Source: a virus. Taken from it: a stretch of DNA of 64,000 nt. The notes beneath the pieces are model-generated. The model made no database searches. It worked only from the letters and a program-made list of their open reading frames with translations, and had not been told where the DNA came from. The stretch lies in the IMG/VR virus record IMGVR_UViG_3300008516_000159. One strand, 5' to 3'. Positions 28,712 through 31,733 of the stretch are shown here, piece by piece (position 1 is the stretch's first letter; each line of letters starts with the position of its first letter). Position numbers and translations under genes: made by a program.

Positions 28712-28974
28712 TTGCTGCTCCTATTATATCCGTCCTGAATATACGTGATGCCTGGGCCCGGACCGCTATAATTATCGTTCCACATTTGGCACCAAATAGC
28801 TTTTGTGTCGCTTATTTTGAGGTACCTTGTTTTGTTATATTCACACACGCAGGTATGATACCCGTGATCCGAACGCTCTTCCCATTTCAAATACTTACAC
28901 GAAACGCATTCAATATCATCCTTGAGCAAAGCCTTGGCTTTAGCTAGCTTAAGCTCTTTGCGTGAGATACTCAT
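28708..28974 (-). CDS. hypothetical Cys-rich protein
   Basis: 88 aa between gp47 and gp46; N-terminal AKAKALL. Confidence 0.6.
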   Translation of the reverse strand: MSISRKELKLAKAKALLKDDIECVSCKYLKWEERSDHGYHTCVCEYNKTRYLKISDTKAIWCQMWNDNYSGPGPGITYIQDGYNRSSN

Positions 28975-29974
28975 CGTTTACTTTCTCTAGTATTGATATA
29001 AGCCTCTTTTTGCTCAAGCCCTCCGGTATGTCTACATTATCCAAAAACTGTTTGGCAAGATTCAAGATACTTGATTTATTCAGTTCCTCAACAAACTCAA
29101 GCTCTTTTATGAGTTCTTCTGATGCGGTGGTTACATCGCAAGAAAGAGCGCCTTTGAGACGCATCTTTTCAAATATAGGCCTTGTGTTTTTTATATCAGA
29201 GGGAATAATAACTTTGACAAAGCAGTTTTCTACATTTACTTTTTCTATTTGGGAGTATTCTACATACTTGAACTTCGGAGCATCCTTGAACTCATGAAAC
29301 CTCCACTCAAGAGTTTTGGTATCAAGAGTGACAAAGCCATGTCTGGTGTCCCGCTCACCAAAATTAGTTTGAAAAGGAGCGCCGATGAATACCACATTTC
29401 CATTCTGCTGATGTAAATGATAATGGCCGGAAAAAACCATGTCCATTTTTTTGAACTGATTTAGTTTAAAACCCACATCACTTACGTGCAGGTTATTCAT
29501 TCGGAAGCCGGCCATGTCCTGATGCATGAATAATACATTCTTGGTATCTTTATTATAATCAAACTTTGGCAGCAAGAATGAATCTATGCCGTTCTTTCTA
29601 TATGACATCATGTGAAATCTAACATTGTCTATATCGTAATAGTTATAGTTGCCAACAACTTCTCCATATTCGTCAAAAGCAAACATGATAGAACCCTTGG
29701 TTGATTCTGGCAACGGCATATCATGATTGCCTATGAGAAAATACATTTTAAGCTCGTCTCTCCATTGTCTGATGATGTCTCGTATAAAAATAAAGTCCAT
29801 GGAGTCGACTCTGGTTTTTATCTGAAACATATCGCCTAGGAAGAAGACGTGCTTTATTTTGTGCTTAATGGCATATTCTCGTGTGTGATTAAGGAAATTA
29901 CCAGCCGTCTTCACAAAGAGATTTGAGCCCATATGCCGATAGGCATGTAGATCACAATATAATAATAGTTTCAA
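28949..29974 (-). CDS. SbcD/Mre11/gp47-like metallophosphoesterase nuclease
   Basis: DLH, GD, GNHD, MH, SGHYH motifs. Confidence 0.93.
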   Translation of the reverse strand: MKLLLYCDLHAYRHMGSNLFVKTAGNFLNHTREYAIKHKIKHVFFLGDMFQIKTRVDSMDFIFIRDIIRQWRDELKMYFLIGNHDMPLPESTKGSIMFAFDEYGEVVGNYNYYDIDNVRFHMMSYRKNGIDSFLLPKFDYNKDTKNVLFMHQDMAGFRMNNLHVSDVGFKLNQFKKMDMVFSGHYHLHQQNGNVVFIGAPFQTNFGERDTRHGFVTLDTKTLEWRFHEFKDAPKFKYVEYSQIEKVNVENCFVKVIIPSDIKNTRPIFEKMRLKGALSCDVTTASEELIKELEFVEELNKSSILNLAKQFLDNVDIPEGLSKKRLISILEKVNDEYLTQRA

Positions 29975-30009: not shown

Positions 30010-30259
30010 CTACATCTTAATACGAGGGTTCAGTTTAGGAGGCCTGTGAGGCACATTCGGTTTCTCCTTTCCAGCCCCTTTATATAAATCCTCTTCTTTC
30101 TTTTTAACTTTAATTAGAAGATCCATAAAGTAGTTTCGATCCTCTGTTGCCATGTTCTGTGTAAACAGAGGATCGATACCACCATGATATGCTAACTCGA
30201 ACTGCTGTTTAAGGAGAGCTTTATAATTCTCCGAATTAGTTTCCTCACCGGCCGATTCG
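30010..30259 (-). CDS. start-less gp51-like tail/baseplate assembly ORF (+1 frame relative to 30245..31138)
   Basis: Hand translation ...ENYKALLKQQFELAYHGGIDPLFTQNMATEDRNYFMDLLIKVKKKEE...KM-TAG; no ATG/GTG/TTG before the conserved-looking part. Confidence 0.65.
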
Positions 30260-31138
30260 AAAAAACTCTGCCGTTATAGGAATTTCTTCGTCAAACATTT
30301 CGTCACAGTATGGACATTGTATGTTTTTGACAGGCTCTATGCCAGCGTCTTTGCCGCTCATATCTTCTCTGATTACCGCCGAGTCATAAGCAAGCAGCGA
30401 ATTGAGAAATTTATCCCAAAGATTAGGATTTAATTCTTCACCTTCGGGTGTGACAATCCTATCCGTAAGGAGTTTTAGTCTATCTGTCGCCGCGTTGTCC
30501 ACTTCTGAAAATTTAACTGCGGCTTTGTCCCTCAACGCTCGTGCTTGTTCCTCAGTATACCCTCTTGGAAGCCTGTAAAAAATAGTAGCCCCAGATTTTG
30601 GAAGCTTGAGTTCAACCGGCTCAATAAAATCTTTTGATATTTCTTTTACCGGCTGTTGTTTTATGTCCACTCTATACTTGAATTTTCTGGTGCACGTTGG
30701 GTTCGGACAGTGCAACGTGAACTCATACTCTGCACCATACGAAAGAGCTCGCAGCCAAAACATCAAAAATATTCGATCTGACGAAAGCAAATCTTTCGGG
30801 TCTATATCCGATTTAATGCAGTTCCTAAACATCATGTCCAACGCCTGACCTGTTTTGATTAGGCGGCTGGTGGCAAGGATTTTCTCTTCGACCATGGTCA
30901 TCGGTCTAATCATAATTTTACCAGATAAAACCAACTTGTCTGTGGTTACATCCTTGTATAAATAACCATGAGACGGAAGAGGTGCCTCTTCTGCTGGAGG
31001 CTCGAAATCTGGCTGAGCGATGGCGTAGTCTTTTCTTGCGCCATGCCTTACTGAATCTTCCGGCGGCTTGTTTTTAACGTTCAGCTCCGATAGATTTACA
31101 GGAGCTCTTGAGTCCTGCGTTTCCGGCGTTTTAGCCAT
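30245..31138 (-). CDS. gp26-like baseplate hub / tail assembly chaperone
   Basis: LPSHG, IRPMTMVEEKIL, two CPxC-type motifs, C-terminal EFFR; lies downstream of the tube gene. Confidence 0.75.
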   Translation of the reverse strand: MAKTPETQDSRAPVNLSELNVKNKPPEDSVRHGARKDYAIAQPDFEPPAEEAPLPSHGYLYKDVTTDKLVLSGKIMIRPMTMVEEKILATSRLIKTGQALDMMFRNCIKSDIDPKDLLSSDRIFLMFWLRALSYGAEYEFTLHCPNPTCTRKFKYRVDIKQQPVKEISKDFIEPVELKLPKSGATIFYRLPRGYTEEQARALRDKAAVKFSEVDNAATDRLKLLTDRIVTPEGEELNPNLWDKFLNSLLAYDSAVIREDMSGKDAGIEPVKNIQCPYCDEMFDEEIPITAEFFRIGR

Positions 31139-31141
31139 TAT

Positions 31142-31312
31142 TTACACCTCCTCATTCTGTTCCGAGAGCACACCAAAGTTTCCTTCTTTGTATTCTCGGA
31201 TTACGTGTTTTGCACCCATATCTGTTAGCTTTTTTATGGAGATTCCAGTTTTTTTCGAAATCTCCTGTAACTCTTTCTTTTCTTTTTCAGAAATTCGGGT
31301 GGTTTCTGACAT
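31142..31312 (-). CDS. small ribbon-helix-helix-like DNA-binding protein, 56 aa
   Basis: Hand translation MSETTRISEKEKKELQEISKKTGISIKKLTDMGAKHVIREY; GGGGG RBS. Confidence 0.55.
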   Translation of the reverse strand: MSETTRISEKEKKELQEISKKTGISIKKLTDMGAKHVIREYKEGNFGVLSEQNEEV

Positions 31313-31448: not shown

Positions 31449-31733
31449 TTATAATTTCAACTTAAGTTCTTTGGCGAGATCTAGTTTTTGTTCCAAACTC
31501 ATTTCCTCAACTTTTTCCCTTTTCACTCTGGCTGACAACAATGCTTTTGTAACAATATTATCGGCTTCTGTTTTTGGTACCATTTTGTCGCCGACTTTCC
31601 AGAGATCCCTCACTCCTGGCGGAAGCTTACTTTTCTCCCAACCCCTGGACATTTTTTGTGTCGCGCGAAGACCACCATATTCCGAACCAATAGTTGTTGC
31701 GCGCAACTCATTCAACGCGGTTGACAGTTTCAT
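31449..31733 (-). CDS. small protein, possible head-internal protein
   Basis: N-terminus MKLSTALNE. Confidence 0.7.
   Translation of the reverse strand: MKLSTALNELRATTIGSEYGGLRATQKMSRGWEKSKLPPGVRDLWKVGDKMVPKTEADNIVTKALLSARVKREKVEEMSLEQKLDLAKELKLKL

Follow-up and report, generated by a model that had tools for sequence, protein, structure and literature searches.

How is an open reading frame (ORF) of more than 80 codons translated when no start codon lies ahead of its conserved part? The question is raised by a locus in a 64,000-nucleotide stretch of viral DNA (IMG/VR virus record IMGVR_UViG_3300008516_000159), which was analyzed at its full length and is called the window in this text. On its minus strand, to which all coordinates of the locus refer, a gene whose product resembles gp26 of phage T4 (31138..30245) overlaps such an ORF, which lies in the +1 frame. 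Comparison of the locus with its relatives indicates that this tail chaperone gene of a large T4-like phage very probably yields two proteins of 297 and 375 residues, the longer one by a +1 slip at a conserved UUU-UUU-CGA.

Anatomy of the overlapping reading frames

The zero frame of the gp26-like gene encodes a short form of 297 amino acids (33.9 kDa), which ends with ...IPITAEFFRIGR and is closed by the TGA at 30247-30245. Near its 3' end lies the proposed slip site TTT TTT CGA (30265-30257), which the zero frame reads as F292, F293 and R294. The preliminary description of this DNA had placed the motif at the same position and had noted an open +1 frame of over 80 codons in the gap behind the gene, opening about 27 nucleotides ahead of the gp26 stop. 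Translation of the window gives 87 codons, from 30273 to the TAG at 30012-30010, and an opening 26 nucleotides upstream of that stop. Because a TAA at 30276-30274 closes the +1 frame upstream of the slip site, any shift is confined to 29 nucleotides, from 30273 to the gp26 stop at 30245.

Counted from the TTC on which the tRNA would re-pair, the extension ORF (30261..30010) comprises 83 residues. The predicted long form, join(31138..30260, 30258..30013) on the minus strand, has 375 amino acids and a mass of 42.9 kDa, and its predicted junction peptide reads ...ITAEFFESAGEETNSENYK, identical to the one given in the preliminary description.

The first ATG, GTG or TTG in the +1 frame is the ATG at 30153..30151, which is located 36 codons past the slip site and inside the conserved domain. 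Gene callers start at this ATG and return a product of 47 amino acids (P0003). The absence of ATG, GTG and TTG ahead of the conserved part, which had been claimed before, was confirmed, and it extends to the near-cognate starts ATT, ATA, ATC and CTG, none of which occurs in frame in the window sequence between 30273 and the conserved YKALLKQQFELAYHGG segment (YKALL). Two overlapping ORFs of which the second has no start are the anatomy of the lambda G/GT type of tail chaperone gene.

Conservation of the frame offset and the proposed slip motif

Related loci were gathered from viral and metagenome collections (75 loci) and from four cultured phages. The motif counts refer to the 49 unique loci that hold both the 3' end of the gene and the extension ORF, four of which are the cultured phages. 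At protein identities of 30-90%, 49/49 loci have the extension ORF at the +1 offset, with no stop codon to interrupt it at Phe-Phe, and the offset is still kept at 30-40% identity. The position of the zero-frame stop ranges from +12 to +36 nucleotides among these loci, and the opening of the +1 frame lies 2-8 nucleotides ahead of Phe-Phe in 23 of them (8 nucleotides in 21 loci and 2 nucleotides in two). Directly past the slip site, around the zero-frame stop, acidic +1-frame codons are conserved in the 49 loci.

The codons at the site were then compared with those in the rest of the same genes. The second Phe codon is TTT in all 49 loci, whereas 64% of the other Phe codons are TTT (400 vs 222). 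It is followed by C in 48/49 loci, and the next base is G in 47/49. The Arg after Phe-Phe is encoded by CGN in every case (47/47), whereas elsewhere in these genes 65% of Arg codons are AGR (546/846). Third positions near the slip site carry 0.0-0.4 bits, that is, the synonymous sites are otherwise scrambled. The nucleotide conservation at the slip site exceeds what is needed at the protein level. The exclusion of AGR after UUU may reflect the need for a C while the Arg is kept. An unbroken T6 is found in 42/49 loci; as the other seven read TTC TTT CGN, the minimal motif is UUU_C(GN).

A conserved slippery site with a conserved offset, here a +1 ORF with UUU in 49/49 and C behind it in 48/49 loci, is another property of the lambda G/GT type. 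The closest comparison is offered by L026, a locus from an independent metagenome with 91% identity, which has an identical site and whose +1 frame shows six synonymous versus three non-synonymous codon changes. The preliminary description had proposed a +1 shift at TTT TTT CGA and, as a check on it, a search for the site and its offset in related phages. Both are kept in the 49 unique loci, and the conserved offset and nucleotide motif argue for the proposed shift.

A second arrangement was found in five related loci (L001:3780-4030, L020:3220-3460, L021:3200-3440, L023:3220-3460 and L058:2070-2310), where the same extension family lies in the -1 frame (E 1e-8 to 3e-21 with the extension profile) and the zero frame reads NFFFP, SFFYP or DFFG. 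These relatives share with the window the body of Pfam family PF12322, the Phe-Phe site and the extension family. They differ in the register of the T run, which is T_TTT_TTC, whereas the lineage of the window has TTT_TTT_C with a +1 extension. The same homologous site therefore appears to serve slips in both directions.

The extension as a protein family

A profile of the extension was built from 43 translations and searched against 1.84 billion representatives, which gave matches to 813 clusters at E<=1e-3. The +1 ORF is therefore more than a chance open frame and represents a real and widespread family. Nearly all of these clusters are orphans of 50-120 residues, and their called starts are scattered. 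Scans of the extension against Pfam and PHROG, alone and with all 43 members of the alignment, gave chance-level matches only. The AlphaFold2 (AF2) model is a helical hairpin with helices at residues 6-27, 31-35 and 39-63, followed by a basic tail, and its predicted local distance difference test (pLDDT) score is above 90 over about residues 10-60. Foldseek searches with this model returned non-specific helical matches only, with E above 2.

One member of the family is joined to its chaperone by nature. The metagenomic protein P0132 (318 amino acids) is an in-frame fusion of a PF12322 domain (residues 24-223) with the extension (residues 245-315, E 2e-17). It was the one longer fused form found by an exhaustive hidden Markov model (HMM) search, and a word-index search for such forms gave none.

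Could the downstream ORF be translated alone, from the ATG at 30153, from a non-canonical start or by re-initiation after the gp26 stop? The existence of the called product P0003 speaks for this explanation, as do some relatives with an ATG about 28 nucleotides past the site or a GTG at +7, and gene calling has turned most of the 813 database entries into small separate proteins. However, a start at ATG 30153 would remove helix 1 (residues 6-27 of the extension) together with the best-conserved motif, YKALLKQQFELAYHGG, both of which are encoded upstream of this codon, and ahead of that motif the window has the lack of starts described above. Twelve of the 49 loci, the window among them, lack a canonical start from the frame opening up to the conserved domain. 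Across the 49 loci the starts fall into no conserved column, and Shine-Dalgarno-like motifs are almost absent. Independent translation also leaves unexplained the invariant +1 offset, the frame that is open across Phe-Phe, and the conserved TTT and C. We consider it unlikely.

Nature of the proposed slip

With a single start, the long form could be reached in several ways, of which a +1 slip of the P-site tRNA-Phe from UUU to UUC appears the most economical and is our reading of choice. A -2 slip on U6 leads to the same frame and is inseparable from it by ORF anatomy. Such slips have been described for chaperone genes of phage Mu. In this case the tRNA-Phe would move back two bases and one more UUC would be read, giving ...EFFFESAGEE... 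with one extra Phe. The unbroken T6 in most of the loci is compatible with this route. In the seven TTC TTT CGN loci, however, re-pairing would produce a mismatch, and these loci keep the same +1 ORF; nor does a -2 slip require the strict C after the second UUU. It seems quite improbable to us.

The seven loci also disfavor slippage of the RNA polymerase, by which the loss of one U or the gain of two would create a sub-population of in-frame mRNA. A run of T6-T7 is present in most loci, but six residues are short for efficient slipping, and known cases of transcript slippage use runs of about 9. The seven loci keep the arrangement with TTCTTT, and slippage would not account for the conservation of C and G behind the T run, which makes this explanation very improbable.

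We give just as little credit to quadruplet decoding, in which a phage tRNA with an enlarged anticodon loop would read UUUC or CGAA and thereby enter the +1 frame. The tRNAs of the window are two ordinary tRNA-Glu, and cultured phages of far smaller size, for example HSE3 (124 kb), keep the motif and ORF arrangement.

The preliminary description had named a single-base assembly error in the T run as one refuter. With such an error, a sequencing error or a pseudogene in decay, the true gene would be an in-frame fusion. Homopolymer runs are error-prone and in-frame fusions do exist (P0132, T4 gp51), but the explanation has next to no chance, as the arrangement recurs across independent metagenomes, with 49 unique sequences, and in four complete cultured-phage genomes, short-form homologs end within a few residues of FFR, and the Pfam domain ends at F293.

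The gp26-like protein

The gp26-like protein matches Pfam PF12322 (T4_baseplate) with 54.8 bits, well above the cut-off of 24.5, and its residues 70-293 cover positions 9-218 of the 219 profile positions. The match ends at residue 293, the second Phe of the slip site. The protein also matches PHROG 150 'baseplate hub' (6.4e-18). Database homologs of the gp26-like protein (n = 43) are 265-351 residues long, and the 32 that were aligned run on for no more than a few residues past an invariant Phe-Phe with a nearly invariant Arg behind it. The gp26-like profile gave no match among the sequences of the PDB, and the nucleotide sequence of the region matched none of 50,697 phage records.

We compared the AF2 model of the gp26-like protein (pLDDT 85) with 48,161 PDB chains. 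The best matches were 3FGX (Z 5.7), 3KLU (Z 5.6) and 2OB9 (Z 5.4), and the next one scored 3.9. All three span model residues 43-143, the N-domain. These entries are the three solved phage tail assembly chaperones (PMC9603447). Foldseek gave a weak match of the model to 2OB9 (E 1.1). The fold matches, with their modest Z values, are supportive of a chaperone function and fall short of proof.

The product of the gene at 31138-30245 clearly belongs to the T4 gp26/gp51 family (PF12322) and is very probably a tail and baseplate-hub assembly chaperone, which would be made in a short and a frameshift-extended form.

The C-terminal half of the gp26-like protein shows fold matches to small zinc ribbons. 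It contains two Cys pairs, CPNPTC and CPYC, at about residues 143-151 and 273-276 (30290-30720). Both pairs are gone together in the homologs P0033-P0044, which have SPEPG... and VPGSDY or DPRSGY in their place, and this joint loss suggests that the metal site is dispensable.

Gene neighborhood and cultured relatives

In the Bacillus phages SP-15 and vB_BceM-HSE3 (HSE3) and the Listeria phage LIS04, the genes are arranged as sheath, tube, PF12322 gene, +1 ORF and tape measure, which is the classical G/GT slot. Likeness to the lambda G/GT chaperones had been suggested for the locus of the window, and the suggestion gains support from this gene order and from the chaperone fold matches of the N-domain. 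The +1 extension ORFs of the cultured phages are L076:3105-3428 (SP-15), L077:3111-3419 (LIS04), L078:3192-3416 (HSE3) and L079:3123-3491 (Streptococcus phage GXN1). At these positions the four GenBank records have either nothing or a truncated 'hypothetical protein' of 39-56 amino acids, between genes annotated as 'baseplate hub' and tape measure, and no frameshift is annotated.

All genes described here for the window lie on the minus strand. Upstream of the chaperone gene lie those of the tail sheath (34428-32365; PHROG 23, 5.9e-81) and the tail tube (32347-31808; PHROG 4542, 1.3e-23), and two small ORFs of 56 and 94 amino acids (31142-31312 and 31449-31733), neither of which matches PHROG, separate the tube gene from the chaperone gene. 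Downstream of the pair lies a gene for an SbcD/gp47-like nuclease (28949..29974; PHROG 100, 6.4e-49). A scan for promoters and terminators gave nothing beyond shuffle level. At the edge of the window are the genes of the tRNA-Glu with anticodons UUC and CUC (253-324 and 1264-1335).

Proposed mechanism of the frameshift

Most ribosomes would terminate at the TGA (30247-30245) and release the short form. In a minority of cases, the tRNA-Phe on the second UUU (30262-30260) would slip by +1 and re-pair with UUC (30261-30259), which offers better pairing for its GAA anticodon than UUU. The next codon would then be a GNN triplet, GAA in the window (30258-30256), and reading would go on in the +1 frame. 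The slip would thereby add 82 residues, which comprise an acidic linker, the helical hairpin and the basic tail. By analogy with lambda gpG/gpGT, the shared body might hold the tape measure or hub protein, while the extension of the rare long form might dock this complex to another tail component.

The efficiency of the slip is probably low, as for gpGT and PA-X, because neither rarity of CGN nor avoidance of the motif was seen, and no conserved downstream structure is present. We infer the ribosomal nature of the slip, its +1 direction, its low efficiency and the partners of both forms.

Several observations weigh against a programmed +1 slip of this kind. The related loci share ancestry, so that naive codon statistics overstate their independence. 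Two cultured relatives do without CGN: SP-15 has TTT TTT CAC and LIS04 has TTT TTT AGT. No stimulator is apparent, since RNA folding downstream of the site shows no conservation across the loci (mean z -0.58; window +0.53) and no Shine-Dalgarno-like element is evident near the slip site. In 44 ORFs of the window, CGN accounts for 245 of 620 Arg codons (40%) and CGA for 80 of 620 (13%), and in-frame TTT_CGN occurs elsewhere in the window ORFs seven times, against 6.2 expected. Since these counts show neither a shortage of CGN nor avoidance of the motif, the motif alone is not strongly shifty, and the idea of a 'hungry codon' is unsupported. The fold matches to chaperones are all below the guideline of the tool (Z 8). 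Finally, the gene that comes after the pair in the window is the SbcD-like gene and not a tape measure gene.

Relation to gp26 and gp51 of T4

Both T4 proteins are complete PF12322 domains in Pfam (gp26, residues 1-206 of 208; gp51, residues 1-201 of 249), and Leiman et al. 2010 (PMC3004832, Table 2) count both among the chaperones of hub assembly. As in the window, gp26 ends at the Phe-Phe boundary (...KEFFELL*, encoded by TTC TTT GAG), whereas gp51 runs on past the equivalent point (...DVFKLL) with a tail of 48 residues. Unlike in the window, the short and the long form of T4 come from two separate, divergent genes and no frameshift is involved. Gene 26 is followed by gene 25 and has no extension ORF behind it, and gene 51 is transcribed divergently.

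The extension had been called gp51-like in the preliminary description. This holds for the C-terminal tail of gp51, to which a weak sequence link exists, and not for the rest of gp51, which is a PF12322 paralog of gp26. In hmmsearch the tail and the extension matched with 6.9 bits at gp51 residues 223-249, a weak score that was nevertheless the best of 501, including those of 500 shuffles. The extension alignment was also aligned with nine gp51 sequences by hhalign and gave a weak match in the expected region, 221-253 (P 0.0025, probability 12%). When gp51 was compared as a single sequence with the gp26-like alignment by hhalign, the relationship was not recovered, although Pfam places both in PF12322.

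The short-plus-long pair therefore has three encodings, namely split genes (T4), an in-frame fusion (P0132) and a frameshifted pair. The T4 record additionally lists gene 26', which begins in frame inside gene 26 and encodes the last 95 residues of gp26 (L080:7803-8090, minus strand), so that T4 has three PF12322-derived products. In the Cronobacter phage GAP161 (L087), gp54, gp51 and gp26 are adjacent and co-oriented, unlike in T4. The record of the Acinetobacter phage Berthold (hit H53) names its gp51 homolog 'tape measure protein assembly chaperone'.

Implications

Frameshifted tail chaperones are already known as a kind. What is new here is PF12322 as their T4-type representative, a +1 shift at UUU_UUU_CGN in a phage, and the coexistence of +1 and -1 versions at a single site. 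The literature searched, which covered few of the subscription papers, contained no description of a frameshift in genes of the gp26/gp51 type.

Taken together, the data incline us somewhat towards a common scheme. The PF12322 proteins would be the long-missing G/GT-type chaperones of T4-like and many huge phages, and their ancestor would be a single gene that carried a programmed frameshift at its terminal Phe-Phe codons. Lineages would use its T run in two registers, -1 at U_UUU_UUC and +1 at UUU_UUU_CGN, the latter being the first prokaryotic use of UUU_CGN, and in T4 two paralogous genes would have taken the place of the frameshift.

If this scheme is true, it would explain why T4 depends on two 'catalytic' hub proteins that are paralogs of each other, gp26 and gp51, the functions of which have been obscure for decades. 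The T4-like and huge phages would join the near-universal rule of a short and a frameshift-extended tail chaperone, and the +1 site UUU_UUU_CGN would be added to the recoding repertoire of bacteria and phages. Homologous codons that serve a -1 slip in sister lineages would provide a natural experiment on why a slip goes forwards or backwards. For annotation, it would mean that hundreds of phage genomes, including those of SP-15, LIS04, HSE3 and GXN1, lack the long form and record a truncated orphan ORF or nothing in its place.

Comparison with known frameshift systems

The frameshift of the tail assembly chaperone genes for lambda gpG/gpGT is reportedly a conserved one, as Xu, Hendrix and Duda are said to have described in 2004. 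The locus of the window resembles it in several respects: a short and a C-terminally extended chaperone would be made from one start, the second ORF is start-less, and a conserved slippery site lies a few codons ahead of the first stop. In the cultured relatives of the window the pair is also found between tube and tape-measure genes, as in lambda, whereas no tape-measure gene follows it in the window itself. The solved chaperones HK97 gp13, YqbN and Rbstp2171 are the best fold matches of the N-domain. The shift differs, since lambda uses -1 at an X_XXY_YYZ heptamer and the window would use +1 at UUU_UUU_CGN. Unlike gpG, the protein of the window is larger (297 amino acids), has a Cys4 zinc-ribbon-like C-terminal half and shows no detectable sequence similarity.

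The motif itself has its counterpart elsewhere, as UUU_CGN is also where the +1 frameshifts of influenza A PA-X and of plant amalgaviruses take place (Nibert et al. 2016, PMC5052127). These systems share with the window a zero-frame UUU_CGN, an overlapping +1 ORF and a P-site tRNA-Phe that can re-pair on UUC. In both, the motif is kept across diverged relatives (CGN in 47/49 loci here) and no obvious RNA structure is seen. They differ from the window in being eukaryotic RNA viruses translated by 80S ribosomes, and in the rarity of CGN. The likeness to PA-X that had been pointed out before thus stands at the level of the motif, where UUU and the following C are conserved, and is unsupported for the element of a slow CGN, since in the window CGN is common and UUU_CGN is not avoided. 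The conserved core of the phage motif may be just UUU_C, with the Arg kept for the sake of the protein.

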